Origin: a virus
Taxonomy: Duplodnaviria > Caudoviricetes
DNA length: 55,782 bases
Strand: one strand, 5' to 3'
Virus record (IMG/VR): IMGVR_UViG_3300005077_000023
Location: 1 to 55,782 of that record
Positions 3,742 through 20,078 of this stretch are shown here, in pieces (position 1 is the first letter of the stretch; every line of letters starts with the position of its first letter). The notes beneath the pieces are model-generated. The model was not told the DNA's origin. It ran no database searches and was given only the letters and a program-made list of their open reading frames with translations. A program made the translations under genes and the position numbers.

Positions 3742-4899
3742 ATGTTAGAAATTCAAAAATATTTAAAATCAAATACAATTGAATCATTAACCAAACATCC
3801 ATATAATTTACATGTTAGTTCAACTAAAGATTTAATTTTATTTAAATACAATCAAATAGAATCTGATTTTTCCTTGCAAATTGTGCAGGAATCACGAGGA
3901 ATTATTTTAGATAAAACAACATTTGAAATTATATGTAATCCATTTTTCAAATTTTGGAATCTTGGAGAAACTCATGCATATAATAATATTAATTTAAAAA
4001 ACTCTATAATTATGGAAAAGAGTGATGGCTCAATTATAAAAGTATATTTTTATAAAAATGAATGGCATATTGCAACCAATGGAACAATAAATGCAGTTGA
4101 TGCTGAAATAAGTAATACAAATTTTTTTCAATTATTTATTGATGTAATTCCAAATTATAAAGAACTATTTACAAATTTTGATAAAAAAAATACATATATT
4201 TTTGAATTAATTCATCCAGTTTCTCAGATAGTAGTTGATTATAAAAATAAAAAAGAATTAGTTCTTATAGGAATTAGATCAAATGATATTAATAATATGA
4301 TAGATTATAATATATTTCATAATTCTATTAAATTAAAATATGAAAAAATATTTTTAAATTTTCCTATTAGATTTCCAAAAATTTATACATTTAATAATGA
4401 TATTTCAGAATTATCAAATTATGCAGATAAAATAAATAAATCTGGAAATGAATTTGAAGGTTTTGTAGTTACTGAAATAAATGATTATAAAGTTACAGGT
4501 AGAGTAAAAATAAAATCTTCACAATATTTAATATTACATCGATTATGTACTGGAGATAAAGTAGAAACAAATCTGGTTGATGTGTTATTAAATGGAAATA
4601 CTGATGAATTTGAAGTATATATAAATAAATTTCCAGTAAATACATCCATTCAATATTTTAAATTAAAACAATCTTTTAATGAATTTTATAGATATATATC
4701 AGATAGTTATGAAATTTATAAAGATATGGCAAATAAAATTAGTAGAAAAGAATTGGCATTAAATGTTATATCTCACAATAAAAATATATCTTCATTTATA
4801 TTTACTTTAATAGATTATCCAAATACTACTATTATGGATGTATTAAAAAAATTAGGATCAAAAAAATTAAAAGAAATTTTATTAAATAGGATAAAATAA
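3742..4899 (+). CDS. T4 Rnl1-like ATP-dependent RNA ligase
   Basis: ESRGIIL, PFFKFWN, motif I EKSDGS, FEL, motif IV EGFVV, motif V VKIKS. Confidence 0.85.
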   Translation: MLEIQKYLKSNTIESLTKHPYNLHVSSTKDLILFKYNQIESDFSLQIVQESRGIILDKTTFEIICNPFFKFWNLGETHAYNNINLKNSIIMEKSDGSIIKVYFYKNEWHIATNGTINAVDAEISNTNFFQLFIDVIPNYKELFTNFDKKNTYIFELIHPVSQIVVDYKNKKELVLIGIRSNDINNMIDYNIFHNSIKLKYEKIFLNFPIRFPKIYTFNNDISELSNYADKINKSGNEFEGFVVTEINDYKVTGRVKIKSSQYLILHRLCTGDKVETNLVDVLLNGNTDEFEVYINKFPVNTSIQYFKLKQSFNEFYRYISDSYEIYKDMANKISRKELALNVISHNKNISSFIFTLIDYPNTTIMDVLKKLGSKKLKEILLNRIK

Positions 4900-6488: not shown

Positions 6489-6501
6489 CTTTCTTACAAA
6501 T

Positions 6502-6571
6502 AGTCTCATAGTTTAATGGAAAAACAGAAATTATGAAATCTATGTTCTTGGTTCAAATCCAAGTGGCGGTA
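6502..6571 (+). pseudogene. Degenerate tRNA-like element
   Basis: D arm nearly identical to the upstream tRNA-Thr and an intact T arm CTTGG-TTCAAAT-CCAAG, but the acceptor and anticodon arms pair poorly. Confidence 0.6.
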
Positions 6572-6598
6572 CATATTTAAAATGATATTGGAGGTTAT

Positions 6599-6973
6599 AT
6601 GTATAAAGAAATAATTGAAAATTACGATCTAATTAAAGAATTAAATCTATATGATATAAAAATAGAAAATAATAATATAATTATTAAAATTGAAAATGAA
6701 TTTATTGCAAAAACATTACAGAATAATTTAATTAAATATTTTAACCAAATGTCAAAATTAATAATACAATATAATGCTTATTATTATTGTATGCATAAAG
6801 AATTAACTGAAATTTATAATTTAATTAAAGAATTAAATTTATATGATATAAAAATAGAAAATAATAATATAATTATTAAAACTGAAAATGAATTTATTGC
6901 AAAAATATTGCAAGAAAATTTAACTAAATATTTCAATCAAATGTCTAATTTATTAACATATTATAATAGTTAA
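6599..6973 (+). CDS. Hypothetical protein made of two 64-aa tandem repeats
   Basis: LIKELNLYDIKIENNNIIIK.ENEFIAK.LQ.NL.KYFNQMS occurs twice with a 192-bp period; GGAGG RBS. Confidence 0.7.
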   Translation: MYKEIIENYDLIKELNLYDIKIENNNIIIKIENEFIAKTLQNNLIKYFNQMSKLIIQYNAYYYCMHKELTEIYNLIKELNLYDIKIENNNIIIKTENEFIAKILQENLTKYFNQMSNLLTYYNS

Positions 6974-6980
6974 GTATTAA

Positions 6981-8615
6981 ATGAAAAAAATATTATATAT
7001 AACTCCGCATTTATCAACAGGTGGATTACCACAATATTTATTAAAAAAAATACAATTATTATATAAAGAATATAATATATATGTAATTGAATATTCTTTT
7101 ATATCTCCAACTTATGTTATCCAAAGAAATAAAATAAAACAAATATTAAAAAATAATTTTTATTCATTATCTAATAATAAAAATGAAATATTAGAAATAA
7201 TAAAAAAAATAAATCCAGATATAATTCATTTTGAAGAAATACCAGAATTATTCATGGATCAAAATATAACACAAAATATATATCAAAAAAATAGAAATTA
7301 TATTATATTTGAAACTTCTCATACTATAAATTTTAATCCATCAAATAAAATTTTTATTCCAGATAAATTTATATTTGTATCTGAATTTCAAGCAATACAA
7401 TATAAAAAATATTTAAATATTCAATATGATATTGCTGAATATCCCATTGAATTTCAATCTAATTTGAAAAATAATAAAAATTTTTTTAAAAATAATTCAA
7501 AAAATATAATAATTGTTGGATTATTCACTCCTACAAAAAATCAAGAATATGTATTTAAATTAGCACAAATGTTGGAAAATTATAATATTAAATTTCATTT
7601 TATTGGAAATACTGCTCCAAATTTTGAATTTTATTGGAAAAAATTAATTGATAATCGTCCAGACAATTGTATAATTCATGGAGAACATGATAATATTACT
7701 AATTTTTATAATTCGGCAGATTTATTAATTTTTCCATCTAATAATGAGAATGGAAGATCAGAATGTAATCCTATTGTTATAAAAGAAGCAATTGGACACA
7801 ATTTAAAAATTTTAATGTTTGATCAAGAATCTTATTGGGGAAAATATGATTATAATTCATTAATAAATTTTTTAACTGGAGATATAAATATAGATTCCAT
7901 AAAAATATTAGATTTACTTAATCTTAGAAAAATAAAAATAAAAATTGTACATATGATAACAGATATTAATTCTCAACGTGAAATTGAATCTATTAATCAA
8001 TTAAGACAACTTGGAAAATATGGAATAGAATATATTTTACATATTAATGAACCATATACAAAACCAGCTCCTTCTATAAAATGTTGGAGACCATATTATA
8101 CTAATAAAAAAACTGAACATGGAACATTATTATCTGGTCATTATGGATGTTATTTAGCACATCGTAATGCAATATTAAGTGAGTTTACAATTGATACTGA
8201 TTTATTAATTATTGCAGAAGCAGATTGTAAAATAAAATCATCCTTAAAAGAATTTGTTGATATGATACATTTAGCAGGAAATAATATGAATAAACATGAT
8301 ATTTCATATTTTAGTTTTGGTGATCCACATAATATTGAAACGGGAGAATTATTTTCTCCTATAATTAATAAAATTGATAATTATATGTATATTACAAATA
8401 AAATAACTTGCGCTCATTGTGTAATGTTTAAAAATAAAGATAGAGATTTTATAATTAATTTATTACAAACTGAATATTGGCATGTTGCTGATTTTTGGTA
8501 TAATTTAGTTTTTAATAAATATAATAAAAAAATGGCAATTTTAAATAATGGTATAGCAACACAAAGAGATGGATTCTCATTAATAGACAATGTATATAAA
8601 ACTTATATAAAATAA
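6981..8615 (+). CDS. Glycosyltransferase (GT-B/GT4-like N-term plus a second GT-like domain)
   Basis: PHLSTGGLPQY, GLFTPTKNQ, ADLLIFPS...ECNPIVIKEA; C-term GHYGCYLAH...EAD. Confidence 0.8.
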   Translation: MKKILYITPHLSTGGLPQYLLKKIQLLYKEYNIYVIEYSFISPTYVIQRNKIKQILKNNFYSLSNNKNEILEIIKKINPDIIHFEEIPELFMDQNITQNIYQKNRNYIIFETSHTINFNPSNKIFIPDKFIFVSEFQAIQYKKYLNIQYDIAEYPIEFQSNLKNNKNFFKNNSKNIIIVGLFTPTKNQEYVFKLAQMLENYNIKFHFIGNTAPNFEFYWKKLIDNRPDNCIIHGEHDNITNFYNSADLLIFPSNNENGRSECNPIVIKEAIGHNLKILMFDQESYWGKYDYNSLINFLTGDINIDSIKILDLLNLRKIKIKIVHMITDINSQREIESINQLRQLGKYGIEYILHINEPYTKPAPSIKCWRPYYTNKKTEHGTLLSGHYGCYLAHRNAILSEFTIDTDLLIIAEADCKIKSSLKEFVDMIHLAGNNMNKHDISYFSFGDPHNIETGELFSPIINKIDNYMYITNKITCAHCVMFKNKDRDFIINLLQTEYWHVADFWYNLVFNKYNKKMAILNNGIATQRDGFSLIDNVYKTYIK

Positions 8616-11676: not shown

Positions 11677-11869
11677 TAAAAAATATGGAACTTTTTTAAT
11701 ATTTTTATGTTATATTGCAAATAAATCAAAAAAACATTATATTTATATATGTATATAAACAAAGTGAAAATAAAATATGAATAAAATACAACCGAAAATT
11801 TTTAATTTAGATTATACTGAAAAATTATTTTTATAATAATTATAGGGGATTAAATATATAATATCGTAG

Positions 11870-11891
11870 AAATCCCCGAAAGGGGATTTTT
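11870..11891 (+). terminator. Intrinsic terminator upstream of the tRNA array
   Basis: AAATCCCC-GAAA-GGGGATTT-TT. Confidence 0.75.
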
Positions 11892-11931
11892 AATTTATAT
11901 ATGTATAAAAAAAAAAAAATTAAAAAAACAC

Positions 11932-11960
11932 TTGACAAACTAAATTTTTATTTGTATATT
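11932..11960 (+). promoter_or_regulatory. Sigma70 promoter of the tRNA array
   Basis: TTGACA-N17-TATATT preceded by an A-rich UP-like tract, 17 nt before the first tRNA. Confidence 0.8.
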
Positions 11961-11977: not shown

Positions 11978-12063
11978 GGTACAATGATGGAATAAGGAAG
12001 TCATGCTGGTCTTAGAAACCAGTGTCGTAAAACGGCGTAAGGGTTCGAATCCCTTTTGTACCA
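11978..12063 (+). tRNA. tRNA-Leu(UAG)
   Basis: GGTACAA/TTGTACC; CTGGT-CTTAGAA-ACCAG; long variable arm. Confidence 0.92.
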
Positions 12064-12130
12064 CGAATACGTGTTATTTGACATAAAAAAAGAAAAAATG
12101 TTGAGAAACATATTTATTTTTTCTTACTGT

Positions 12131-12215
12131 GGCATGATGCTGGAATTGGTAGTCAAACAAGACTTAAAATCTTGTGTCCTTTAAGGGCGTGAGGGTTCGA
12201 GTCCCTCTCATGTCA
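12131..12215 (+). tRNA. tRNA-Leu(UAA)
   Basis: GGCATGA/TCATGTC; CAAGA-CTTAAAA-TCTTG; long variable arm. Confidence 0.92.
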
Positions 12216-12222
12216 CAATTTT

Positions 12223-12309
12223 GGAGAGTTGGCAGAATGGTATTGCACCAGTCTTGAAAACTGTGGTTATCCAGCGATGGATATAAGAGTTCAAATCCCT
12301 TACTCTCCT
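12223..12309 (+). tRNA. tRNA-Ser(UGA)
   Basis: GGAGAGT/ACTCTCC; anticodon loop CTTGAAA; long variable arm. Confidence 0.9.
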
Positions 12310-12316
12310 CTTTAAT

Positions 12317-12390
12317 GGAACGGTAGCTCCAATTGGTAGAGCGGTAGCTTGAAGAGCTAAGCGTTATTGGTTCAAGTCCAATCCGTTCCG
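12317..12390 (+). tRNA. tRNA-Phe(GAA)
   Basis: GGAACGG/CCGTTCC; loop TTGAAGA. Confidence 0.9.
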
Positions 12391-12395
12391 CAATT

Positions 12396-12473
12396 CAGAT
12401 GGTAACTCAATTGGCTTAGAGGCTATGACTTGGAATCATAGGGTTGGGGGTTCGAATCCCTCTCATCTGACCA
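12396..12473 (+). tRNA. tRNA-Pro(UGG)
   Basis: CAGATGG/TCATCTG; TATGA-CTTGGAA-TCATA; encoded CCA. Confidence 0.92.
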
Positions 12474-12474
12474 T

Positions 12475-12545
12475 GCATCAGTAGTTTAATGGAAAAATGC
12501 TGTCCTTCCAAGTCAGAGTTGTGAGTTCGATTCTCATCTGATGCT
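12475..12545 (+). tRNA. tRNA-Gly(UCC)
   Basis: GCATCAG/CTGATGC; loop CTTCCAA; U73. Confidence 0.9.
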
Positions 12546-12592
12546 CAATAATAAATTAATTTTATATATTAAATAAATAAGAAAGATATAAA

Positions 12593-12856
12593 ATGAAAGA
12601 AATACTCAGTGCCAGCACTTCAAAACATCAATTAAAATTTGAATTATTAAAATTAAGTAAAGAAAATCCAACTAAGTATTATACATATACTGCTACATTT
12701 GGAATTGTATATATTATTGAACACGATTCCAGACCAAAATCTGGTTATGGTGAACAATGTTATAAGGCCTATGGTGGATTTTTTAAAAATGGTAAAATTA
12801 TTAAACCTGATAGTGCATGGATGAAACAATATAATTTTATTCCCTATTCTCGATAA
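12593..12856 (+). CDS. Hypothetical protein inside the tRNA array
   Basis: 87 aa ORF between tRNA-Gly and tRNA-Asn. Confidence 0.6.
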   Translation: MKEILSASTSKHQLKFELLKLSKENPTKYYTYTATFGIVYIIEHDSRPKSGYGEQCYKAYGGFFKNGKIIKPDSAWMKQYNFIPYSR

Positions 12857-12891
12857 TAGATAATAGAGAATTTTATTAAAATAAACAATGA

Positions 12892-12963
12892 TCCGATGTA
12901 GCTCAATGGCAGAGCAGATGGCTGTTAACCATAAGGTTATAGGTTCAAGTCCTATCGTCGGAG
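12892..12963 (+). tRNA. tRNA-Asn(GUU)
   Basis: TCCGATG/CGTCGGA; loop CTGTTAA; G73. Confidence 0.92.
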
Positions 12964-12970
12964 CAAATAT

Positions 12971-13042
12971 AAGTATGTTGGTTAATTGGTAAACCAACAG
13001 ACTCCAAATCTGTGACTGTAGGTTCGAGTCCTATCATACTTG
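12971..13042 (+). tRNA. tRNA-Trp(CCA)
   Basis: AAGTATG/CATACTT; ACAGA-CTCCAAA-TCTGT. Confidence 0.92.
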
Positions 13043-13047
13043 CTATT

Positions 13048-13140
13048 GGAGCTTTTTCCTGTTGGCAGTCTGTAAAACTGTTGCCCATAAATATAAAACA
13101 GGTTGGTTAAGGGCGTGTGGTTCGAATCCATGAAGCTTCA
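13048..13140 (+). tRNA. Atypical tRNA-Tyr(GUA): no canonical D-arm, enlarged variable arm
   Basis: GGAGCTT/AAGCTTC; GCAGT-CTGTAAA-ACTGT; TGTGG-TTCGAAT-CCATG; only about 9 nt between the acceptor and anticodon stems. Confidence 0.75.
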
Positions 13141-13146
13141 CAAAAT

Positions 13147-13219
13147 CCACGTATAACTCAATTGGTAGAGTACCTGTCTTATACGCAGTTAGTTGAAAGT
13201 TCGAGTCTTTCTACGTGGA
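13147..13219 (+). tRNA. tRNA-Ile(UAU)
   Basis: CCACGTA/TACGTGG; loop CTTATAC; A73. Confidence 0.85.
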
Positions 13220-13220
13220 C

Positions 13221-13298
13221 AAAATGGGTCGTAAAACAAGATTATCATATATCTTATAAATATAAAGGAAAAACTCTTGTTTTAATTTAATCCATTTT
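13221..13298 (+). ncRNA. Stem-bulge hairpin RNA copy 1 (Y RNA-like candidate)
   Basis: AAAATGGGTCG-TAAAACAAGA-TTATC..loop..-TCTTGTTTTA-ATTTA-ATCCATTTT. Confidence 0.7.
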
Positions 13299-13348
13299 AT
13301 TTGTTATAAAATTTTTGATATATATAAAAATACGAACAGTTAATGAAA

Positions 13349-13424
13349 AAAATGGGTCGTAAAATAAGATTACCATCTGTAAGTGAAAATACAAAATAAC
13401 TCTTATTTTAATTTAATCCATTTT
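13349..13424 (+). ncRNA. Stem-bulge hairpin RNA copy 2 (Y RNA-like candidate)
   Basis: AAAATGGGTCG-TAAAATAAGA-TTACC..loop..-TCTTATTTTA-ATTTA-ATCCATTTT. Confidence 0.7.
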
Positions 13425-13473
13425 GTTTTTTATAAAATTTTTGATATATATATAAATGCGTACAGTTGATGAA

Positions 13474-13538
13474 AAAATGGGTCGTAAAATAAGATTATCA
13501 TCAGGCAAAAAAATTCTTATTTTAATTTAATCCATTTT
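13474..13538 (+). ncRNA. Stem-bulge hairpin RNA copy 3 (Y RNA-like candidate)
   Basis: Same stems; loop TTATCATCAGGCAAAAAAAT. Confidence 0.7.
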
Positions 13539-13568
13539 GTTTTTTATAAAATTATAAGGATTTAAATT

Positions 13569-13745
13569 ATGAATATAAATGTTAATGGAACATTTCAAAT
13601 TAAAACTGATATTGAAATTCAAAATGCTGATATTATAATTGAAGAATTAAATAATTATATTATGAATGTTAATACAGAAATCAATAAAATAGTCAATACA
13701 AGTAATAATATATATTTACAAATTGATTCCATATCAGTAATTTAA
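13569..13745 (+). CDS. Small hypothetical protein (58 aa)
   Basis: AAGGA RBS; MNINVNGTFQIKTDIEIQNADIIIEELNNY...ISVI*; below the ORF-track size cutoff. Confidence 0.55.
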   Translation: MNINVNGTFQIKTDIEIQNADIIIEELNNYIMNVNTEINKIVNTSNNIYLQIDSISVI

Positions 13746-13748
13746 AAT

Positions 13749-13821
13749 GGGGCTATAGCTCAATTGGGAGAGCGTTTGCCTTGCACGTAAAAGGTTTGCG
13801 GTTCGAGTCCGCATAGCTCCA
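13749..13821 (+). tRNA. tRNA-Ala(UGC)
   Basis: GGGGCTA/TAGCTCC with G3:U70; loop CTTGCAC. Confidence 0.95.
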
Positions 13822-13835
13822 CTGAACATTTAAAT

Positions 13836-13922
13836 AGAGAGTTGACAGAACGGTAATGTACCAGATTGCTAATCTGAGGTTATCCAGAAATGGATATAAG
13901 AGTTCGAGTCTCTTACTCTCTG
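13836..13922 (+). tRNA. tRNA-Ser(GCU)
   Basis: AGAGAGT/ACTCTCT; loop TTGCTAA; long variable arm. Confidence 0.92.
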
Positions 13923-13924
13923 CT

Positions 13925-14004
13925 AAAATGGGTCGTAAAATAAGATTATCAAAATGTGTACATCTAATACAAATAAAAACTCTTATTTTAATTTAATCCA
14001 TTTT
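13925..14004 (+). ncRNA. Stem-bulge hairpin RNA copy 4 (Y RNA-like candidate)
   Basis: Same stems; loop TTATCAAAATGTGTACATCTAATACAAATAAAAAC. Confidence 0.7.
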
Positions 14005-14010
14005 TAAATA

Positions 14011-14158
14011 ATTTAAATATTCACGGTGAGAGAGATTGAGAGTTAGAAGATTTGAAGTTGATCATCGAGTCAGTATAACAAATAAAAATAATATGTTATT
14101 ATGACGATAATAATCAGAATATTTTTATCTTGCTCTCTCATACCGTGAATATTTAAAT
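14011..14158 (+). ncRNA. Unassigned ~150-nt rod-shaped RNA (6S-like candidate)
   Basis: ATTTAAATATTCACGGT-GAGAGAG pairs with CTCTCTC-AT-ACCGTGAATATTTAAAT; inner GTCA..ATAACA/TGTTAT..TGAC stem. Confidence 0.55.
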
Positions 14159-14160
14159 AT

Positions 14161-14236
14161 GGGGTGTGGGACTGCTTTGGTGTGGTCGCTTGACTGTCAA
14201 TCAAGAGATAGATGGGTTCAAATCCCATACATCCCG
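14161..14236 (+). tRNA. tRNA-Asp(GUC)
   Basis: GGGGTGT/ACATCCC; CTTGA-CTGTCAA-TCAAG; G73. Confidence 0.9.
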
Positions 14237-14252
14237 CAGATTAAAATAAATT

Positions 14253-14325
14253 GCCATTGTAACTCAATTGGAAGAGTATCTGATTTGTAATCAGACAGTT
14301 GGGGGTTCGAGTCCCTTCAATGGCT
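14253..14325 (+). tRNA. tRNA-Thr(UGU)
   Basis: GCCATTG/CAATGGC; TCTGA-TTTGTAA-TCAGA. Confidence 0.93.
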
Positions 14326-14330
14326 CACAT

Positions 14331-14403
14331 TGCCAGATGATGCAATTGGTCAGCATACAGTCCTTTGAAGTCTGTTATTAAGGTTCAAGTCCTTATCTGG
14401 TAG
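14331..14403 (+). tRNA. tRNA-Gln(UUG)
   Basis: TGCCAGA/TCTGGTA; loop CTTTGAA. Confidence 0.9.
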
Positions 14404-14405
14404 CT

Positions 14406-14465
14406 AAATGGGTCGGAAAATAAAATTATCGTTATTATATATTTTATTTTCAATTTTATCCATTT
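14406..14465 (+). ncRNA. Stem-bulge hairpin RNA copy 5 (Y RNA-like candidate)
   Basis: AAATGGGTCG-GAAAATAAAA-TTATC..-TTTTATTTTC-AATTTT-ATCCATTT, with compensatory changes. Confidence 0.65.
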
Positions 14466-14476
14466 TAAAAATAAAA

Positions 14477-14556
14477 ATTTTGGGTCGAAAAATAAGATTA
14501 TCATCAGAACAATAGGATAAATACTAAAACTTCTTATTTTTAAATTAATCCAAAAT
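14477..14556 (+). ncRNA. Stem-bulge hairpin RNA copy 6 (Y RNA-like candidate)
   Basis: ATTTTGGGTCG-AAAAATAAGA-TTATC..-TCTTATTTTT-AAATTA-ATCCAAAAT, with compensatory changes in the basal stem. Confidence 0.7.
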
Positions 14557-14563
14557 ATAATAT

Positions 14564-14637
14564 GGGATCGTCGTCTAAGTTGGTTAGGATATAGGAATTT
14601 CAATCCTATGATGAGAGTTCAAGTCTCTTCGATCCTA
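14564..14637 (+). tRNA. tRNA-Glu(UUC)
   Basis: GGGATCG/CGATCCT; TAGGA-ATTTCAA-TCCTA. Confidence 0.88.
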
Positions 14638-14642
14638 CAAAT

Positions 14643-14727
14643 GACATGGTGTTGAAATTGGTAGTCAAGCAAGACTCAAAATCTTGTGTCCTTTAAGGGC
14701 GTGAAGGTTCAAATCCTTTCCATGTTA
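14643..14727 (+). tRNA. tRNA-Leu(CAA)
   Basis: GACATGG/CCATGTT; CAAGA-CTCAAAA-TCTTG. Confidence 0.92.
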
Positions 14728-14733
14728 CTATAT

Positions 14734-14808
14734 GGTGAATATGATGGAATTGGTAGACATACATGACTGTGACTCATGGTTTTGAGAGTTCGAGTCTCTC
14801 TATTCACC
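14734..14808 (+). tRNA. tRNA-His(GUG)
   Basis: Encoded G-1:C73; GTGAATA/TATTCAC; CATGA-CTGTGAC-TCATG. Confidence 0.92.
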
Positions 14809-14814
14809 CAAAAA

Positions 14815-14886
14815 GGTCATATAGCTTAATGGAAAAGCAATTGCCTGATACGCAATAGACTCTTGGTTCAAGTCCATGTATGACCA
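14815..14886 (+). tRNA. tRNA-Ile(GAU)
   Basis: GGTCATA/TATGACC; ATTGC-CTGATAC-GCAAT. Confidence 0.9.
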
Positions 14887-14916
14887 CAAGAAAAAAAACA
14901 AATTTAAGGAGGTTAT

Positions 14917-15162
14917 ATGATTACTTATAGTTTTACATCACACAAAGAAAATAATTTAAGAACAACCATTGCTACTGTAAATGTAAATGGAAGTGTATTT
15001 ACTGGAGAAACTATACAAATGCCTAAAGATCAAGATAACAAATTAATTGGACAAAAAGTTGCATTAACAAAAGCAATAAAAAATGCCGATAAATTTACAA
15101 GAACAGCAGTTTGGAAGTTATTTCTTACATCAAAAAAAATAAATACATGCGAAACTAAGTAG
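14917..15162 (+). CDS. Hypothetical phage protein
   Basis: AAGGAGG RBS; 81 aa. Confidence 0.7.
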   Translation: MITYSFTSHKENNLRTTIATVNVNGSVFTGETIQMPKDQDNKLIGQKVALTKAIKNADKFTRTAVWKLFLTSKKINTCETK

Positions 15163-15205
15163 ATATTAAATAATGGCTCAAATCCATTCATGTATTTATT
15201 TTAAT

Positions 15206-15279
15206 GGGACATTAACTCAATTTGGCAGAGTAACTGGCTTTTAACCAGTAAGTTAAAGGTTCAAATCCTTTATGTCCCA
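15206..15279 (+). tRNA. tRNA-Lys(UUU)
   Basis: GGGACAT/ATGTCCC; ACTGG-CTTTTAA-CCAGT. Confidence 0.95.
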
Positions 15280-15306
15280 CATATATTATATATAGAAAGG
15301 TTTTAA

Positions 15307-15495
15307 ATGTCATTAAAGAAAATTAATACAATTAATGAATTATTAATTATTATTAGTAAAAAAATGGATGTACAACAAAATATAGATGGAAAAATGTATA
15401 ATATTTCATTTATTACTATGTTAAATTTAAAATTAATACAATTAATGCAAATGATATCAGATGGGAAATTATTTTATGAAGAAATTCAATGGTAA
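15307..15495 (+). CDS. Hypothetical protein
   Basis: 62 aa ORF filling the gap between tRNAs; AAGG RBS. Confidence 0.55.
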   Translation: MSLKKINTINELLIIISKKMDVQQNIDGKMYNISFITMLNLKLIQLMQMISDGKLFYEEIQW

Positions 15496-15501
15496 TATTT
15501 T

Positions 15502-15575
15502 GATGTGATGGGTGAGTGGTCAAAGCCTCTTGTCTTACAAACAAGAATTCGTTGGTTCAAATCCAACTCACATCA
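15502..15575 (+). tRNA. tRNA-Val(UAC)
   Basis: GATGTGA/TCACATC; CTTGT-CTTACAA-ACAAG. Confidence 0.92.
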
Positions 15576-15652
15576 CAATTAAATTTTTATTTAAAAAATA
15601 TTTTTTAAATATTTATATTAAGTAACAAAATATTTAAAGGATATATAAAAAT

Positions 15653-16750
15653 ATGTTAGATTTTTTATTTACAAAAATTATAAATACTATTGATGATTTA
15701 GTTTTAATATTAAATGATAATATAATTATTGAAGCTAACAATAAATCATTATCTGAATTTGGATCAAATATAATAAATAGTCCAATATCAGAATTGATAC
15801 CAGATAATTTAGATTCTTTTTTAGAATTTATATCTGGAAATGAAACTTCAAAAAATTTTATATTCAATAATAAAAAAATATATTCTTGTAAATTCATTAC
15901 ACATGTAGAATTTATAATATTATTTTGCTCTGATATTGAAAAATATTATTTATTAAATGAACAAAATAATATAAATAAATATAAATTTGATGTATTATTT
16001 AATAATGAATCAATAGGAAATGCAATATTAGATTTAGATATGTCTTTTATAGAACTTAATTCAAAAATATCAATTTTATTAGGATATGAATTTGGAGAAT
16101 TAAACTCTATGAATTTAAAAAATATAATTTATAAATCTGATATAGATTTATATAATGAAATATTAAATAAAATAAAATCAAAAAATAATTATTATGGAGA
16201 AATAAGATTAGTTAAAAAAAGTGGATTATACATATGGACATTAATAACAATATCTTCATATAATTATAAAAACAATACAATATATTATATATTAAATATA
16301 CAAGATATATCTGAACAAAAATATTATCAAGAAAAAATTCAAAAAACCGAAGAAAGATATAGAGCATTGATTCATAAATCGTTTCATGCTATTGTATATA
16401 AAAAATTAATATATGATAAATCAGGAAATATAATAGATTATATTATAATAGATGCTAATCCAACATTTGAACGAGTAACAGGATTTAAATTAAATGAAAT
16501 TATTGGACGACCAATGAAAATGAAAGCCGCAATACATTTTAATGTATCCGATGATGAAAATAATTTAAGATTACAACGATATGATAGAATTTTAAAAGAT
16601 AATCAAGATATTCATTATAAATCTCAACCATCAAGAACATTTAAATATCCAATTGATGTATATTATTATATTTTAAATAAAGATGAAAATATAATAGCAG
16701 TAGTCTTTGGAGATGAACAAAACGATAGAGAAATTATACTAAATTTATAA
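15653..16750 (+). CDS. Multi-PAS domain protein with no recognisable output domain
   Basis: PAS/PAC signatures: LLGYEFGEL, EIRLVKKSGLYIW...IQDISEQK, EERYRALI, DANPTFERVTG....IIGR. Confidence 0.75.
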   Translation: MLDFLFTKIINTIDDLVLILNDNIIIEANNKSLSEFGSNIINSPISELIPDNLDSFLEFISGNETSKNFIFNNKKIYSCKFITHVEFIILFCSDIEKYYLLNEQNNINKYKFDVLFNNESIGNAILDLDMSFIELNSKISILLGYEFGELNSMNLKNIIYKSDIDLYNEILNKIKSKNNYYGEIRLVKKSGLYIWTLITISSYNYKNNTIYYILNIQDISEQKYYQEKIQKTEERYRALIHKSFHAIVYKKLIYDKSGNIIDYIIIDANPTFERVTGFKLNEIIGRPMKMKAAIHFNVSDDENNLRLQRYDRILKDNQDIHYKSQPSRTFKYPIDVYYYILNKDENIIAVVFGDEQNDREIILNL

Positions 16751-16751
16751 T

Positions 16752-16830
16752 ATATGTCATAATGACATATTATATAAAATTTCATAAATATATAATTTTA
16801 TTATATTTATATATTGGCATAATAATTGTA
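16752..16830 (+). promoter_or_regulatory. Palindrome plus sigma54-like element upstream of Hsp20
   Basis: ATATGTCAT-A-ATGACATAT (16752-16770) and TTGGCATAATAATTGTA (GG-N10-GT, 16814-16830). Confidence 0.4.
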
Positions 16831-16884
16831 ATATAATATACAAATAATTTAAAACTATACATATTATATTAAGGAGAAAGTATT

Positions 16885-17271
16885 ATGCTTATTAGATCAC
16901 CATTTAAAACTGTTAATTATGTAGAAGATATTATTGATGCCATTTTTGATAAAAATGATAAATATAACATAATTAAAAATGAAGATGATTCAGTAGAAAT
17001 ACAAATACAAGTTGCTGGATTTAAAAAAGAAGATATAAAAGTAAAATATACTGATGGATATTTAAATATATCTTCAGAAAATGAAATTGATGATGGGAAC
17101 AAAAATAAAAAATATATGTATAAACAACTATATAAAGAAAAAGTAAATTATAGTTTTTATATTGGAAATGATTTAACTGAAGATAACATAAATGCACGAA
17201 TTGAAAATGGATATTTATATATAAAAATATCATTTCCAAAAAGCATTTCTAAGGATATAATAATTGCTTGA
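16885..17271 (+). CDS. Small heat shock protein (Hsp20/alpha-crystallin)
   Basis: YNII...VAGFKKEDIKV...L.I...I.ARIENGYLYI; AAGGAG RBS. Confidence 0.9.
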   Translation: MLIRSPFKTVNYVEDIIDAIFDKNDKYNIIKNEDDSVEIQIQVAGFKKEDIKVKYTDGYLNISSENEIDDGNKNKKYMYKQLYKEKVNYSFYIGNDLTEDNINARIENGYLYIKISFPKSISKDIIIA

Positions 17272-17461
17272 AATAATTAATTTTAATAATAAAAAATATA
17301 TAATTAAAGATATTATAAAAGAAGAATTAATTAATACAGATAATATAGAAATCATAAAATTAACACGTATGTCAAATTTAATATTGAAAAAAGATGGATT
17401 AATGTATTTTGTAGAAGAAATAATTGATATTGATTTTGAAGATATAATAAATAAAATTTAA
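17264..17461 (+). CDS. Hypothetical protein
   Basis: 65 aa ORF coupled to Hsp20. Confidence 0.5.
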   Translation: MLEIINFNNKKYIIKDIIKEELINTDNIEIIKLTRMSNLILKKDGLMYFVEEIIDIDFEDIINKI

Positions 17462-17480
17462 AAAATAATTAAAAAAACTA

Positions 17481-17509
17481 TTGACAATGATATTTTTAAT
17501 TAGTATATT
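17481..17509 (+). promoter_or_regulatory. Sigma70 promoter for tmRNA-tRNA-Ro60
   Basis: TTGACA-N17-TATATT, 11 nt upstream of the tmRNA. Confidence 0.8.
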
Positions 17510-17520
17510 ATATAAGATTT

Positions 17521-17823
17521 GGGGACGATCTGGATTCGACATTCAGATCAGAGATATTGAAATCAATCAAACTTGCAGTGATGCAAAAAGAATAAATAAC
17601 ACTTATAGATTAGTTGCTTAATTATATTAAGCTATTACTCCATGATGTTAAATAGTGGAAGTAATATCGTATTTAACAAAAAAATGGTCTCAATCCATTC
17701 AAAATGAGTTTTAAATAGTTTTTTTTATTTAACATTTAAGTAAAAAGTAAATAAAATATGATTGTAAAAAATTTCAGTATTTAAACTGGATGGACATGGG
17801 TTCAAATCCCATCGTCTCCACTA
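17521..17823 (+). ncRNA. ssrA: tmRNA
   Basis: 5' GGGGACGATCTGGATTCGAC and 3' GGACATGGGTTCAAATCCCATCGTCTCCA (alanyl acceptor with G3:U); internal tag frame ...AKRINNTYRLVA* ending at 17621. Confidence 0.92.
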
Positions 17824-17824
17824 T

Positions 17825-17899
17825 TGCGGGATGGACTGGAGGTGGTTCCAGCTTGGTCTCATAAGCCAAATCACATGGGTTCGACTCCCATTCCCGCAA
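17825..17899 (+). tRNA. tRNA-Met(CAU), initiator-like body
   Basis: TGCGGGA/TCCCGCA; TTGGT-CTCATAA-GCCAA. Confidence 0.88.
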
Positions 17900-17953
17900 C
17901 TTTAAATAATTGTAGTTATGGTTAAAATTAATCTCTTAACAATGGAGGTCGTC

Positions 17954-19534
17954 ATGCAAAAATATCAACATTCAGTAAATAGTCCACAAACTGAACCAAT
18001 AATTGGAAAAGAATCCTTAATGGAAAAAAATTATGCTGGAGGATATGTTTTTAAATTGGATGATTTAAAAACATTAGATAGATTTTTAATTCTTGGATCA
18101 GATTCGCCTACTTATTATGCATCTGCTCGTAAACTTACAAAAGAACATTTGAAAAATATTATGAATTTAATAAATACAAATGGTAAAGCTGTAATTGATC
18201 GAGTAGTCGAAATATCTCATAGTGGACGTGCTCCACATAATGATCCTGCATTATTCGTATTAGCGGCAACAACAATAAGTAATGATCCTAATGTCAGAAA
18301 ATATGCTTTTGAAAAATTACCGTTAGTAGCAAGAATTGGAACACATTTATTTCATTTTGTAGAATATGTAAAAGCATTTCGTGGATGGGGAAGATCATTA
18401 CGAAAAGGAGTATCACATTGGTATTTAACAAATAAAAATTTACCATTACAATTAGTTAAATATCAATCAAGAGATGGAATGTCACATCAAGTTCTTATAC
18501 GTTTGTCACATCCAAAAACAGATGATCCAATTATAAATAAAATGTTTAATTGGTCAGTTAATGGAGTTTATGATATTAATGAAGTTAGTGATATTCCATT
18601 GATTTATGGATTTGAATTAATTAAAAAAGCAACTAATGAAGATGAAGTTGTTAAATTAATTAAAAAATATAATTTGCCACGAGAAGCAGTTCCTACACAA
18701 TTCATGGGAAATAAAGTATGGACTGCATTATTTCCAAATTTAAATATTGAAGCATTAGTACGAAATTTAGGAAATTTATCTCGACATGGTGTATTAACTG
18801 ATGGAAATTTTAATAATATTAATTTTGTAGTTGAAAAATTACATAATGTAGATATAATTCAAAAATCCAGAATGCATCCTCTTCAATTTATGACTGCTTT
18901 ATCAACTTATAAATCTGGACGAGGATTAAAAGGATCAGGAACATGGTATCCAATTCCAAATATTGTTTCTGCATTAGAAGATGCATTTTATTTATCATTT
19001 AAAAATGTTATTCCTTCTAATAAAAAAATACTTTTAGCATTAGATGTATCTGGTTCAATGAGTGTAGAAATTAATAATCTTGGAATTAGTGCAAGAGAAG
19101 CCACTGCAATATTAGCAATGGTAACAATGAGAACTGAACCTAATTGGTCTATTGTAGGATTTACTCATCAATTATCTAAATTAAATATTGATAAAAATAT
19201 GACATTAAATGAGGTAGTTAGAAAAATTTCTGGTCTTTCTTTTGGAAGTACAGATTGTTCATTACCAATGTTATATGCAAAAGATAAAAATTTAGATTAT
19301 GATGCAATAGTTATTTATACAGACAATGAAACATATTTTGGAAATACACATCCATCTATTGCATTGGCAAAATATAGAAAATTTATTAAACATGATGTTA
19401 AATTAGTTGTAGTTGGTATGACATCAACTCAATTTTCTATAGCTGATCCAACAGATAATGGAATGTTAGATGTAGTTGGATTTGATAGTAATTCTCCATC
19501 AATTATATCTGATTTCATTTCTGATAAAATATAA
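17954..19534 (+). CDS. Ro60/Rsr-family TROVE + vWA RNA-binding protein
   Basis: NYAGGYVF...LDRFLILGS..PTYYAS; HLFHF...RGWGRSLRKGVSHWY; LVKYQSRDG.SH..L.RLSHP; vWA ALDVSGSM, TDCSLPM, YTDNET, GMLDVVGFD. Start taken at the ATG after GGAGG. Confidence 0.95.
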   Translation: MQKYQHSVNSPQTEPIIGKESLMEKNYAGGYVFKLDDLKTLDRFLILGSDSPTYYASARKLTKEHLKNIMNLINTNGKAVIDRVVEISHSGRAPHNDPALFVLAATTISNDPNVRKYAFEKLPLVARIGTHLFHFVEYVKAFRGWGRSLRKGVSHWYLTNKNLPLQLVKYQSRDGMSHQVLIRLSHPKTDDPIINKMFNWSVNGVYDINEVSDIPLIYGFELIKKATNEDEVVKLIKKYNLPREAVPTQFMGNKVWTALFPNLNIEALVRNLGNLSRHGVLTDGNFNNINFVVEKLHNVDIIQKSRMHPLQFMTALSTYKSGRGLKGSGTWYPIPNIVSALEDAFYLSFKNVIPSNKKILLALDVSGSMSVEINNLGISAREATAILAMVTMRTEPNWSIVGFTHQLSKLNIDKNMTLNEVVRKISGLSFGSTDCSLPMLYAKDKNLDYDAIVIYTDNETYFGNTHPSIALAKYRKFIKHDVKLVVVGMTSTQFSIADPTDNGMLDVVGFDSNSPSIISDFISDKI

Positions 19535-19537
19535 CAT

Positions 19538-19622
19538 AAAAATCTTCATTTCATATATTTATATAAATAAGATAAAAATATTAATAAATCTTATTAAAAT
19601 AAACTGAAATGAAGATTTTTTT
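19538..19622 (+). terminator. Long hairpin after Ro60 (terminator or small RNA)
   Basis: AAAAATCTTCATTTCA ... TGAAATGAAGATTTTT(TT) with an inner AATAAGAT/ATCTTATT stem. Confidence 0.5.
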
Positions 19623-19637
19623 ATTTTTAAGGATTAA

Positions 19638-20078
19638 ATGGCAAGAACAATATATCATCTTTTATTTTATACAAACGGTGTTTTATTTTTTTTGGATAAA
19701 ATTAGAATTAATGAAGTAATTTACACACATAAAGCAGTGGGTTTTATTTTAAATAGTAAATCAAATTCTTTTGATGATACTTCATATCCAAAAAAATCAA
19801 TTATATGGATTCCAAATAATTTTATAAAATTTAAAAAAGAAGAATTTGCTGAATTTTTAATTGAAATGAAAATGAATTTTAATATATATAATACTGCAAA
19901 TTTTTATCCACAATATTGTTGTATAATAGCAATAAAATCTGGAAAAAGATATGGTAAAGCTATAATTAATAATTATTATGATGAAAATATAATCAAGAAA
20001 TATATTCCAAATTGGATAAAAATAGAAAAAAATTTAAATAATGAGGATTTTGAAAAAATGGTTGAACAATTAATATAA
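19638..20078 (+). CDS. Hypothetical protein
   Basis: 146 aa, AAGGA RBS. Confidence 0.6.
   Translation: MARTIYHLLFYTNGVLFFLDKIRINEVIYTHKAVGFILNSKSNSFDDTSYPKKSIIWIPNNFIKFKKEEFAEFLIEMKMNFNIYNTANFYPQYCCIIAIKSGKRYGKAIINNYYDENIIKKYIPNWIKIEKNLNNEDFEKMVEQLI

Follow-up and report, generated by a model that had tools for sequence, protein, structure and literature searches.

Six Y RNA-like stem-bulge hairpins within a phage tRNA array, probable RNA partners of a phage Ro60 protein

Introduction

The window analysed in this work is a stretch of 55,782 nucleotides (the Caudoviricetes record IMGVR_UViG_3300005077_000023, positions 1 to 55,782) from an AT-rich phage genome (approximately 21% GC), in which six small hairpin RNAs sit within a tRNA gene cluster. 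The locus raises the question of what these hairpins are, and whether they serve the Ro60 protein that the same phage encodes. An earlier note, made from the letters of the DNA, had proposed a phage Ro60 system with six Y RNA-like RNAs. Comparison with other Ro60 loci supported this reading, and the computational refutation tests that were run all favoured it; on this basis the hairpins are very probably small Y RNA-like (stem-bulge) RNAs that act as RNA partners of the phage Ro60.

Results

The six hairpins were found where the earlier note had placed them, between 13221 and 14556 and all on the + strand (Table 1), and each, folded alone, took the single architecture claimed for them. Every copy has a basal stem AAAAUGGGU/AUCCAUUUU of 8-9 bp, an unpaired CG facing 5-6 nt, a 10-11-bp upper stem and an apical loop of 14-35 nt that is different in each copy and starts with UUAUC in all except the second. 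Fold z-scores ranged from -2.6 to -4.6, with 0-4 of 200 shuffles folding equally well. The 22-nt motif TGGGTCGNAAAAYAARATTAYC was matched six times in the window with 0 mismatches, always on the + strand, and the count and strand were unchanged when up to 3 mismatches were permitted; the expectation from shuffles was 0.03, and 0 of 100 shuffles reached six. GGGTCG, described as invariant, occurs 7 times in 55.8 kb (0.59 expected), and six of these are accounted for by one in each hairpin. The stem-bulge module is nearly invariant across the six copies, the stems of copies 1-4 being almost identical, and the loops vary in length and sequence.

Table 1. Positions of the hairpins (trimmed to the basal stem) and of associated features in the window.
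Feature	Position	Strand	Remarks
Phosphoesterase	2696-3421		Pfam Metallophos 2.8e-08
T4 Rnl1-type RNA ligase	3742..4899	+	Pfam RNA_lig_T4_1 3.6e-19
HD protein	4900-5496		Pfam HD_5 1.7e-28
tRNA array, 20 called genes, holding the six hairpins	11978..15576	+	ARAGORN and Rfam tRNA
Hairpin copy 1	13221..13298	+	Immediately 3' of tRNA-Ile; R1 85.7 bits; R2 11.8 bits, E 3.1
Conserved spacer, 50 nt, between copies 1 and 2	13299..13348	+	Contains TTTTTGATATATATA
Hairpin copy 2	13349..13424	+	UUACC loop start; R1 87.6 bits; R2 17.0 bits, E 0.33
Second spacer copy, between copies 2 and 3	13425..13473	+	Sequence
Hairpin copy 3	13474..13538	+	Shortest loop of copies 1-4; R1 83.1 bits; R2 18.5 bits, E 0.18
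Hairpin copy 4	13925..14004	+	1 nt past tRNA-Ser(gct); R1 88.7 bits; R2 without match at E<=10
Hairpin copy 5	14405..14466	+	Immediately 3' of tRNA-Gln; R1 59 bits; R2 15.4 bits, E 0.64
Hairpin copy 6	14477..14556	+	R1 78.9 bits; R2 15.9 bits, E 0.54
tmRNA (17521-17823) and tRNA-Met (17825-17900), directly upstream of Ro60	17521..17900	+	
Ro60 gene, 538-aa ORF, proposed protein partner	17918..19534	+	TROVE E 1.7e-28; vWA_Ro60 E 1.5e-63

The compensatory changes attributed to copies 1, 5 and 6 are real, being visible in the sequence and in the individual folds. Two-sided changes occur at approximately six base pairs among the six copies: copies 1-4 close the upper stem with U-A, copy 5 with G-C and copy 6 with A-U; at one pair copy 1 has C-G and the others U-A; at one upper-stem pair copy 5 has A-U in place of the G-C of the others; and three basal pairs that are A-U in copies 1-5 are U-A in copy 6, in which the basal stem is flipped to UUUU/AAAA and the motif reads GUCGAA. 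The changes preserve pairing at the RNA level, G-U pairs in relatives included. Near-pure A-U stems form easily at approximately 21% GC. The paired figure for the A5 alignment, 91.8%, is inflated because the rows had been chosen beforehand for pairing, and a lenient family-wide stem test was passed by 67% of real instances versus 33% of shuffled tails.

Copies 1, 4 and 5 abut the preceding tRNA, as had been noted, with stems starting 0-1 nt after tRNA-Ile, tRNA-Ser and tRNA-Gln (ends at 13220, 13923 and 14404, respectively), and tRNA-Glu starts at 14564, 7 nt past the end of copy 6. Copies 1-3 form a tandem repeat with a unit of approximately 125 nt and conserved spacers. A promoter-like site (11932-11960, 11/12 matches), itself preceded by a terminator-like hairpin (11867-11892), lies ahead of the array. 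TTTTTGATATATATA, in the spacer between copies 1 and 2, is on our own reading a possible extended -10 element; the promoter scan did not pick it out there.

The Ro60/TROVE gene reported downstream is complete, its intact ORF starting 3362 nt past copy 6. Matches of the protein to solved Ro60 and Rsr structures span its full length (2nvo Rsr, 3e-119; 9nen RO60, 3e-106; 1yvp Xenopus Ro, 3e-105). By our own count, the residues aligned with K170, R174 and H187 of Xenopus Ro, which we take to have functional roles, are conserved, and judged by its sequence the protein looks functional. The distance from the hairpins to Ro60, 3.4-4.7 kb, exceeds that at most related loci, and a PAS protein, an Hsp20, the tmRNA and several tRNAs are encoded in between. 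In the available text of Chen et al. a 4-kb distance criterion is used; copies 1-3 exceed 4 kb. The tmRNA, preceded by a promoter-like site (17481-17509), and tRNA-Met may be co-transcribed with Ro60. Elsewhere in the window, the RNA ligase, the phosphoesterase and the HD protein give the locus an RNA-repair context.

Linkage of the hairpins to Ro60 was measured in both directions. A model built from the six window copies (R1) was searched against 80 viral Ro60 loci (1.22 Mb, both strands, E<=10) and gave 13 matches, 13/13 on the Ro60 strand. Twelve of these lie 67-1847 nt upstream of Ro60 and share the motifs GGG[UC]CG, [GA]UUA[UC]C and a UUUAUCC-type 3' motif, save that the L009 match has GGUCAUC instead of the second. 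The pattern GG[TC]CG-N8-18-TTA[TC]C was found 116 times on the Ro60 strand at up to 2.5 kb upstream, versus 5 times on the opposite strand and 6 times when the pattern was reversed. Conversely, two patterns were scanned over all viral contigs with Ro60 ignored, and 35 loci were recovered. At 24 of them the hairpin is upstream of a same-strand Ro60 gene no more than 2 kb off, and at a 25th, in a complete record, Ro60 is approximately 0.5 kb distant when counted across the record's ends; at the other 10 no Ro60 was seen in the available sequence, four of these records being fragments. Related hairpins thus co-occur with TROVE genes and are not distributed independently of them, in keeping with the proposal.

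A second model (R2), built on 27 hairpins from bacterial Ro60 loci only and not on the window, returned exactly five matches in the window at E<=10 with filters off, namely copies 3, 2, 6, 5 and 1 with exact ends, at individually weak E-values (0.18-3.1); copy 4 was missed at this threshold, and default filters left only copy 6. In viral loci R2 gave 78 matches at E<=0.1, 78/78 on the Ro60 strand, and these include the best R1 matches (L031:3429-3504 and L013:6909-6984). The offset from GGGYCG to TTAYC is fixed, with a mode of 17 in prokaryotic loci and 16 in the window copies. Phage and bacterial Ro60 loci commonly carry arrays of such modules (up to 8-9), frequently interspersed with tRNAs, and the module is also present, without a U-tail, at Ro60 genes of GC-rich phages and bacteria. 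The window hairpins therefore belong to a widespread hairpin family that is closely associated with Ro60 genes in both phages and bacteria.

The Rfam scan of the window copies gave no match to Y_RNA, YrlA, RF01656 or any other family even at E<=10, and the claim that the copies lack the tRNA-like domain of YrlA agrees with the absence of any YrlA or tRNA match inside them. The proposed link to nematode stem-bulge RNAs was recovered through GC-rich relatives, which match RF01656 (ceN72-3_ceN74-2): 40.4 bits in L184, above the gathering score of 38, then 37, 34.2 and 33.1 bits, and in viral loci 33.5 bits (L013) and 30.4 bits (L031). Longer relatives from other phages match Rfam YrlA below threshold (42.5, 34.8 and 22.6 bits).

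Discussion

Apart from its loop, each copy consists of nothing beyond the Ro60-type module: GGGUCG and AAUCC on the 5' and 3' strands of the terminal helix, then an asymmetric bulge, an upper helix and a loop that begins with UUAUC. YrlA (Rfam RF02553), whose consensus reads 5' ggCgaA and 3' cUuGucGcc, shares the terminal module and likewise lies upstream of Ro60 on the same strand, but it carries a tRNA-like domain with T- and D-arms between the module strands, where the window copies have only their loop. Nematode stem-bulge RNAs and vertebrate Y RNAs share with the window family a GGUCCG lower stem, a bulge, an upper stem, the UUAUC loop start and a CUUGACC-type 3' strand, and the GG-to-UUAUC spacing is 17 in the RF01656 consensus, as in the prokaryotic mode, versus 16 in the window. 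Unlike the window copies, which themselves match neither RF01656 nor Y_RNA, these RNAs are made by polymerase III in eukaryotes and have a U-tract at the end.

The closest published bacterial counterparts, by description, are the second, simpler Y RNAs near rsr (Yrn2 of D. radiodurans and YrlB of S. Typhimurium and M. smegmatis), which according to the available text of PMC4201824 are single long hairpins with a GNCGAA-type motif near the 5' end, as in the window. The same text gives a long-hairpin Y RNA for each bacterium studied, places Yrn2, tRNA-Asp and Yrn1 on one polycistronic precursor, makes the accumulation of Yrn2 dependent on Rsr, and mentions a possible T-arm in M. smegmatis YrlB; those reports have one such RNA per genome, compared with six here. 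Its full motif is GNCGAA(N0-1)G, so that the match claimed for copy 6 stands in part: GNCGAA is exact there and in no other copy, and the trailing G is present in none. In phages, the available text of PMC12135203 describes Yrl1 and Yrl2 of Thermus phage phiLo, encoded upstream of the phage Ro60 gene, as stem-bulge-stem RNAs with a CGAA-type motif, with no tRNA-like domain in that description, and reports Ro60 binding and host PNPase complexes by gel shift and cryo-EM. These RNAs resemble the window copies by description; phiLo has two copies adjoining Ro60 and the window six within a tRNA array 3.4-4.7 kb off, and the phiLo Ro60 is distant from the Ro60 of the window (E 4e-9 versus 3e-119 for D. 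radiodurans Rsr). For Caulobacter phage CcrColossus, a published table (Table S2) gives three tandem YrlA candidates. Phage Y-like RNAs have already been published, among them stem-bulge-stem forms and an array of three copies, and multi-copy arrays with tRNAs are common at Ro60 loci, so the arrangement is neither peculiar to this phage nor as unusual as the earlier note suggested.

A role in DNA replication has been reported for nematode stem-bulge RNAs and vertebrate Y RNAs, and the main job of the window hairpins could be one independent of Ro60, either in replication or as decoys that occupy a nuclease or RNA-binding protein of the host. We regard this as quite unlikely. In the available text of PMC4726728 the UUAUC loop motif is required for the replication activity of stem-bulge RNAs, and most nematode stem-bulge RNAs were not found bound to Ro, 17 from C. 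elegans being absent from Ro pull-downs. The near-invariance of UUAYC at a fixed offset and the location of the copies within the tRNA array, not adjoining Ro60, would fit such a job; the tight positional and strand linkage of the family to Ro60 genes speaks against it. We know of no replication role for such RNAs in bacteria or phages, and the failure of literature searches to find one also counts against this explanation.

It is very improbable that the hairpins are tRNA-operon punctuation unrelated to Ro60, such as RNase III or RNase E sites, 3' stabilisers or weak terminators or attenuators. They do lie at tRNA boundaries, with A-runs and U-runs flanking the basal stem and UUUUGUUUUUU following copies 2 and 3, but the terminator scan called none of them, because the stems hold too few G-C pairs, and terminators behind single tRNAs would defeat the array. 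Punctuation also leaves unexplained the invariant GGGUCG, UUAUC and AAUCC and the U-tail-free module at Ro60 genes of GC-rich genomes. DNA-level repeats without RNA function (left over from tandem duplication, or forming a small mobile element or the binding sites of a DNA-binding protein) are scarcely credible, since the tandem arrangement of copies 1-3 and the near-identical stems of copies 1-4 are outweighed by strict strandedness (6/6 in the window, 78/78 for R2), by changes that preserve RNA pairing, G-U pairs in relatives included, and by retention of the module while the loops diverge.

If the hairpins are Y RNA-like partners of Ro60, we infer that the tRNA array would be transcribed as long precursors from which RNase P and RNase Z, or equivalents, would free the hairpins by cutting at flanking tRNAs; for copies 1, 4 and 5, a cut after the tRNA discriminator base would put the 5' end either exactly on the basal stem's first base or 1 nt ahead of it. 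Ro60 would then bind the conserved helix and bulge and stabilise the RNAs, and the six different loops may gate Ro60 or link it with different partners, a candidate being host PNPase by analogy with known Ro60-Y RNA-PNPase complexes. Together with the phage tRNAs, tmRNA and RNA ligase, such a system may act during infection in the turnover of structured RNA or in its quality control.

Six hairpins of one architecture in the tRNA array

The window record (55,782 bases, about 21% G+C, estimated to be 28% complete) encodes a gp25 baseplate protein, 24 tRNA genes, a tmRNA, an Rnl1-type RNA ligase and further accessory genes. Six hairpins within its tRNA array, which an earlier note had proposed to be Y RNA-like stem-bulge RNAs partnering a phage Ro60, were re-examined by folding, pattern search and covariance modeling, and the note's observation of them was correct in all details checked. 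Coordinates in the window and in the other loci discussed are collected in the table.

A 22-nt pattern, TGGGTCGNAAAAYAARATTAYC, matched six times in the window, all without mismatch although three mismatches were permitted (0.03 matches in shuffled sequence), and six of the seven window occurrences of GGGTCG were within the hairpins. Folded singly, all six copies had the same stem-bulge-stem shape, with a terminal helix and bulge: a basal stem of 8-9 bp (AAAAUGGGU/AUCCAUUUU), an unpaired CG facing 5-6 A/U, an upper stem of 10-11 bp, and a loop of 14-35 nt starting with UUAUC in five copies and UUACC in copy 2. Folding z-scores ranged from -2.6 to -4.6. Two-sided, pairing-preserving changes were present at about six pairs: the closing pair of the upper stem was U-A, G-C or A-U, single covariant pairs distinguished copy 1 (C-G, U-A in the others) and copy 5 (A-U, G-C in the others), and three basal pairs were flipped in copy 6. 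The loops varied in length and sequence; the stem-bulge module was nearly invariant. The position of the Ro60-binding motif, given for bacteria as GNCGAA(N0-1)G by Chen et al. 2014 (PMC4201824), read GUCGUA in copies 1-4, GUCGGA in copy 5 and GUCGAA in copy 6, with the trailing G in none of the six.

The YrlA (RF02553) and tRNA models had no match inside any copy at E<=10 and the T-loop sequence was absent from the loops, in agreement with the claimed lack of a tRNA-like domain. No match was obtained with the nematode stem-bulge RNA model (RF01656) in the window at E<=10, or with the vertebrate Y RNA model (RF00019) across 12500-20000 at E<=10, and Rfam assigned no family to the hairpins, whether the window was scanned with gathering scores or at E<=10. 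Readings of the hairpins as DNA repeats or processing sites were weighed and rejected. As for intrinsic terminators, a terminator scan called none of the six, whose stems contain no more than 3-4 G-C pairs apiece and are broken by the bulge.

Two further structured stretches lie in gaps of the array. The 156-nt near-perfect hairpin after copy 4 matched neither Rfam families nor either of the covariance models R1 and R2 described below. The tRNA-like stretch before tRNA-Ile has a possible 7-bp acceptor stem, the T-loop GGUUCGAAUCC and a loop CUGUAAA that would give anticodon GUA (Tyr), and was called by neither ARAGORN nor Rfam; the amino acids absent from the called tRNA set are Tyr and Cys.

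Features in the window and in other Ro60 loci
Sequence	Feature	Positions	Strand	Remarks
Window	Phosphatase match	1524-2024		Weak, dual-specificity
Window	Three-gene row	2696-5496		Calcineurin-like phosphoesterase, T4 Rnl1-type RNA ligase, HD-domain protein
Window	Promoter-like site	11932-11960		11/12 matches
Window	tRNA array	11978-15576		Contains all six hairpins
Window	tRNA-like stretch	13044-13146		Gap from tRNA-Trp to tRNA-Ile
Window	Hairpin copy 1	13221-13298	+	4620 nt to Ro60 start
Window	Hairpin copy 2	13349-13424	+	4494 nt to Ro60 start
Window	Hairpin copy 3	13474-13538	+	4380 nt to Ro60 start
Window	Hairpin copy 4	13925-14004	+	3914 nt to Ro60 start
Window	Near-perfect hairpin, 156 nt	14005-14160		RNAfold -50.3 kcal/mol; fills gap from copy 4 to tRNA-Asp
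Window	Hairpin copy 5	14405-14466	+	3452 nt to Ro60 start
Window	Hairpin copy 6	14477-14556	+	3362 nt to Ro60 start
Window	PAS-domain protein (365 aa) and Hsp20 small heat-shock protein	15653-17271		Between tRNA array and tmRNA; unusual phage cargo
Window	Promoter-like TTGACA-17-TATATT	17481-17509
Window	tmRNA	17521-17823		74.8 bits
Window	tRNA-Met	17825-17900
Window	Ro60 gene	17918-19534	+	TROVE and vWA_Ro60 domains
Window	Peptide deformylase adjoining IMP dehydrogenase/GMP reductase-type gene	27417-29016		Auxiliary genes
L013 (viral)	Match shared by R1 and R2	6909-6984
L031 (viral)	Match shared by R1 and R2	3429-3504
L081 (viral)	Match shared by R1 and R2	159-227
L018 (viral)	Modules among tRNA genes	1200-2320		Upstream of Ro60
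L022 (viral)	Modules among tRNA genes	4900-8000		Upstream of Ro60
L184 (bacterial)	Module array	1000-2300		Upstream of rsr
L184 (bacterial)	tRNA-topology molecule	1282-1405		Insert not the permuted module
L184 (bacterial)	tRNA-topology molecule	1510-1617		Permuted module
L028	tRNA-topology molecule	7584-7709		Permuted module
L031 (viral)	tRNA-topology molecule	3507-3629		Permuted module
L203 (Gordonia phage GMA2)	Ro60 homologue, then tRNA features	3510-8196		Orf59, annotated hypothetical; 16 annotated tRNA features
L204 (Microbacterium phage FuzzBuster)	One YrlA-like and two short modules	3190-3482		Unannotated gap upstream of Ro-like gene 78

The encoded Ro60 protein

The Ro60 gene claimed to be intact was confirmed as such, the ORF carrying PF05731 (TROVE, the HEAT-repeat ring, 1.7e-28) and PF25045 (vWA_Ro60, 1.5e-63) at full length. 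Residues 19-534 aligned to Rsr (2nvo) and residues 24-536 to Xenopus Ro (1yvp), and the 15 nearest homologues were 51-59% identical. The counterparts of Xenopus K170, R174 and H187, which we take to be residues with roles in RNA binding, were conserved in the window protein and invariant among its homologues. All hairpin copies are on the strand of this gene, copies 4-6 less than 4 kb from it and copies 1-3 slightly beyond 4 kb, the distance limit applied by Chen et al. 2014.

Linkage of the hairpin family to Ro60 genes

Megablast of 13100-19600 against cultured phages returned nothing, a single-protein Ro60 query for loci in viral contigs found no relative, and the exact 22-nt window motif had no match in viral contigs; these collections thus contain no near-identical relatives of the window copies, and an alignment-based search was needed. 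An alignment of the window Ro60 with its 15 nearest homologues was used to retrieve 80 viral and 80 bacterial Ro60 loci.

R1, a covariance model built from the six window copies, gave high scores in the window to these copies only, followed by their own reverse strands (<=19.5 bits). Its 13 matches at E<=10 across 1.22 Mb of viral Ro60 loci were without exception on the Ro60 strand. Twelve were located 67-1847 nt upstream of Ro60 and had a GGG[UC]CG start, an upper stem, [GA]UUA[UC]C (GGUCAUC in L009) and a UUUAUCC or UUGCCC end; the thirteenth, in L019, was without these motifs.

The pattern GG[TC]CG-N8-18-TTA[TC]C, applied up to 2.5 kb upstream of Ro60 in the viral loci, matched 116 times on the Ro60 strand, five times on the other strand and six times when reversed. 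At least one match was present in 48 of the 80 viral loci, at least two in 35, at least four in 18 and none in 32. For bacterial loci the corresponding strand counts were 230 and 3, with at least one match in 69 of 80, at least four in 32, none in 11, and a maximum of nine per locus. Of the GGGYCG occurrences upstream of Ro60, 87 of 155 in viral loci and 220 of 421 in bacterial loci had TTAYC after them, as against 1-5% elsewhere, and the offset between the two was 17 in 61 of the 87 and 193 of the 220 (16 in the window copies). The pattern gave no convincing match at the Ro60 loci of Sinorhizobium phage Phosso or Gordonia phage GMA2, so not all phage Ro60 loci carry the module in this form.

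A second covariance model, R2, was built without the window, from 27 short hairpins of bacterial Ro60 loci only. Run with filters off over both strands of the whole window, R2 gave exactly five matches at E<=10, all with exact ends on hairpin copies (from best to weakest copies 3, 2, 6, 5 and 1; 18.5-11.8 bits, E 0.18-3.1). The copy with the longest loop, copy 4, was missed under these settings, and default filters recovered copy 6 alone. Low individual scores are expected because A/U-rich copies were scored by a G/C-rich model; that all five matches fell on the copies is not chance, the matches being individually weak and jointly specific. In the viral loci R2 had 78 matches at E<=0.1, all 78 on the Ro60 strand and distributed over 44 loci. 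They include the best R1 matches, in L031, L013 and L081, so the two models converge on the same RNAs.

In the reverse direction, two three-part patterns were scanned over all viral contigs with Ro60 not considered, which yielded 35 loci. A Ro60 gene was present inside the 2 kb fetched in 24 of these, always on the same strand with the hairpin upstream. R2 confirmed four of the other 11 as hairpins, one of them in a complete record with Ro60 about 0.5 kb away across the record ends; the remaining records searched (fragments, 11-37% complete) had no Ro60 in the available sequence. Same-strand tRNAs adjoin two of the R2-confirmed hairpins and also the pattern match in L091, which R2 did not confirm. 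With 25 of 35 loci tied to Ro60, the hairpins are not spread independently of TROVE genes, the distribution that the earlier note had named as counting against its reading; the other ten may be partly chance matches.

Taken on these sequence comparisons, the six hairpins are probably Y-like RNA partners of Ro60.

Size classes and relatives in Rfam

The family falls into two size classes, long (about 100-160 nt) and short (about 57-93 nt). Long members carry T-arm and D-arm sequences between the two module strands and matched Rfam YrlA below threshold (42.5, 34.8 and 22.6 bits in L018, 31 in L022); the YrlA consensus, 5' ggCgaA and 3' cUuGucGcc, corresponds to their terminal module. YrlA has a tRNA-like domain between its helix strands, whereas the window copies are without one.

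Short members are plain stem-bulge hairpins as in the window and matched RF01656 (ceN72-3_ceN74-2). The bacterial locus L184 scored 40.4 (gathering score 38; E 1.4e-6), 37, 34.2, 33.1 and 21.5 bits, and hairpins a short way upstream of Ro60 in the viral loci L013 and L031 scored 33.5 and 30.4 bits, respectively. The alignments agree over the whole module, in the order UCGG(U/G)CCG(G/A)AG, four variable bases, UGGGUUAUC, CCCA, four variable bases and CAC(C)AA(C/U)UUG(A/C)CCG. The window copies have the stem-bulge-stem shape and the UUAUC loop start in common with the nematode RNAs, but are not matched by the nematode covariance model. The link to stem-bulge RNAs drawn in the earlier note is therefore supported for the family, through its RF01656 matches, and not for the window copies themselves, which no Rfam model matches.

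Among 42 short members the basal stem showed strong covariation, being 91.8% paired (35-47% with the partner slid) with 126 two-sided changes (42 when shuffled). These figures are upper bounds, since pairing had been a condition for choosing the rows and was imposed on the inner four pairs. The simple stem criterion for membership is lenient, passing 67% of real and 33% of shuffled instances, and reliance was therefore placed on the covariance models rather than on the alignment of short members (A5).

Up to nine modules were seen upstream of rsr in the bacterial Ro60 loci (L122-L201; for example L184, L179 and L187) of Armatimonadota, Chloroflexota, Myxococcota and other bacteria; several match RF01656, one of them above the gathering score. 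In the viral loci L022 and L018, 7-8 modules are interleaved with tRNA genes, which shows that the window is not alone in mixing tRNAs with Y-like RNAs. Four other molecules have normal tRNA topology (acceptor stem, D arm and T arm; Rfam tRNA 41-47 bits), but their anticodon arm bears an insert of 50-63 nt. For three of them this insert is a circularly permuted Ro60-type module, ordered UUGCCC, small loop, GGGCCG.., upper-stem strand and GGUUAUC, the opposite permutation to YrlA; no description of such molecules was found in the literature searched.

A tentative reading, which we hold to be somewhat doubtful, is that the Ro60-adjacent hairpins of bacteria and phages, the window copies included, share true homology with the Y RNAs of animals and the stem-bulge RNAs of nematodes, one module having moved with Ro60 across bacteria, phages and animals. 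The shared module would be GG(N)CCG or GGGYCG, an upper stem of 11 nt and UUAUC, with a 3' strand of CUUG(A/Y)CC. The vertebrate Ro60-binding motif is GGUCCGA. In a 2015 review (PMC4726728), bacterial Y RNAs are stated not to be homologous with the vertebrate clades, and UUAUC is described as a motif that occurs in stem-bulge RNAs and vertebrate Y RNAs and is required for replication activity.

Comparison with published systems

Ro-like gene annotations were found in 369 cultured phage records, mostly from actinophages. Chen et al. 2014 (PMC4201824) report YrlA candidates close to the Ro60 gene for 254 bacteria and 22 phages; the candidates share the strand of the gene and most are no more than 4 kb from it. 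Caulobacter phage CcrColossus has three in tandem (Table S2). The same study describes at least two Y RNAs per bacterium studied, one of which is a long hairpin. In Thermus phage phiLo, two stem-bulge-stem RNAs are encoded upstream of the Ro60 gene and are bound by its product, and complexes with host PNPase form (2025, PMC12135203). By these reports, phage Ro60 with small Y-like RNAs is already a known kind. The arrangement that the earlier note did not recognize as described is one case of a pattern that many Ro60 loci of phages and bacteria show, and is not unique; in the window the pattern takes an unusually clean, AT-rich, six-copy, minimal form. In the literature searched, with few subscription journals, no description was found of RNAs like the stem-bulge RNAs in prokaryotes, of arrays of six or more minimal modules in a phage tRNA cluster, of a near-universal UUAYC at fixed offset in prokaryotic Ro60-linked RNAs, or of such RNAs matching the nematode stem-bulge model.

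Proposed processing and function

The array is probably transcribed as long precursors. A promoter-like site follows a terminator-like hairpin and precedes the first array tRNA, in a window so AT-rich that the promoter scan is uninformative (78 sites, 68.6 expected). The positions claimed for copies 1, 4 and 5 directly after tRNA-Ile, tRNA-Ser and tRNA-Gln were borne out. CCA is not encoded by the tRNAs at the hairpin junctions, and a cut after the discriminator base would place the 5' end of these three copies at, or 1 nt before, the first basal-stem base; RNase P cutting at tRNA-Glu would leave a 7-nt tail on copy 6. Among bacteria, such release has a precedent in D. radiodurans Yrn2, made in a polycistronic precursor with tRNA-Asp and Yrn1 (PMC4201824). 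Copies 1-3 make up a tandem repeat (about 125 nt), whose conserved spacers might hold a promoter (TTTTTGATATATATA), read by eye and given no support by the promoter scan.

The helix and bulge would then be the site bound by Ro60, which would protect the RNAs, and the six distinct loops could gate Ro60 or tether it to different partners; in bacteria, Y RNAs provide such a tether between Ro60 and PNPase. A promoter-like site, the tmRNA and tRNA-Met stand head to tail directly ahead of the Ro60 start codon, an order that suggests one transcript.

Upstream of the array, a phosphoesterase, an RNA ligase and an HD-domain protein are encoded in a row, possibly a tRNA-repair set, and the phage seems to carry its own RNA repair and surveillance kit, composed of these and the Ro60 system.

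Significance

Ro60 and Y RNAs are conserved from bacteria to humans, Ro60 is a major autoantigen, and the role of the RNAs is debated. More interesting than the window itself is a candidate stem-bulge-like RNA module with UUAUC that, judged by sequence, travels with Ro60 through bacteria and phages; arrays of such modules are common at phage and bacterial Ro60 loci and are often mixed with tRNAs. The window presents the Ro60-type module at its barest, in six copies with the loop alone varying, and this loop-only variation makes it a natural experiment on what Ro60 requires of a Y RNA and what is left free to specialize. Were the homology with animal Y RNAs true, UUAUC would be a determinant of the Ro60 particle rather than a eukaryote-specific replication signal, and phages would be multiplying a minimal module (six here, eight or more elsewhere) with varied loops, which would point to several Ro60 targets or host nucleases. 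The repertoire of large phages would likely gain an RNA-surveillance or RNA-repair unit of tRNAs, tmRNA, RNA ligase, Ro60 and Y-like RNAs. If the pattern holds, cultivable phage-bacterium systems, such as that of FuzzBuster, would allow tests of how Y RNAs evolved and of what UUAUC does.
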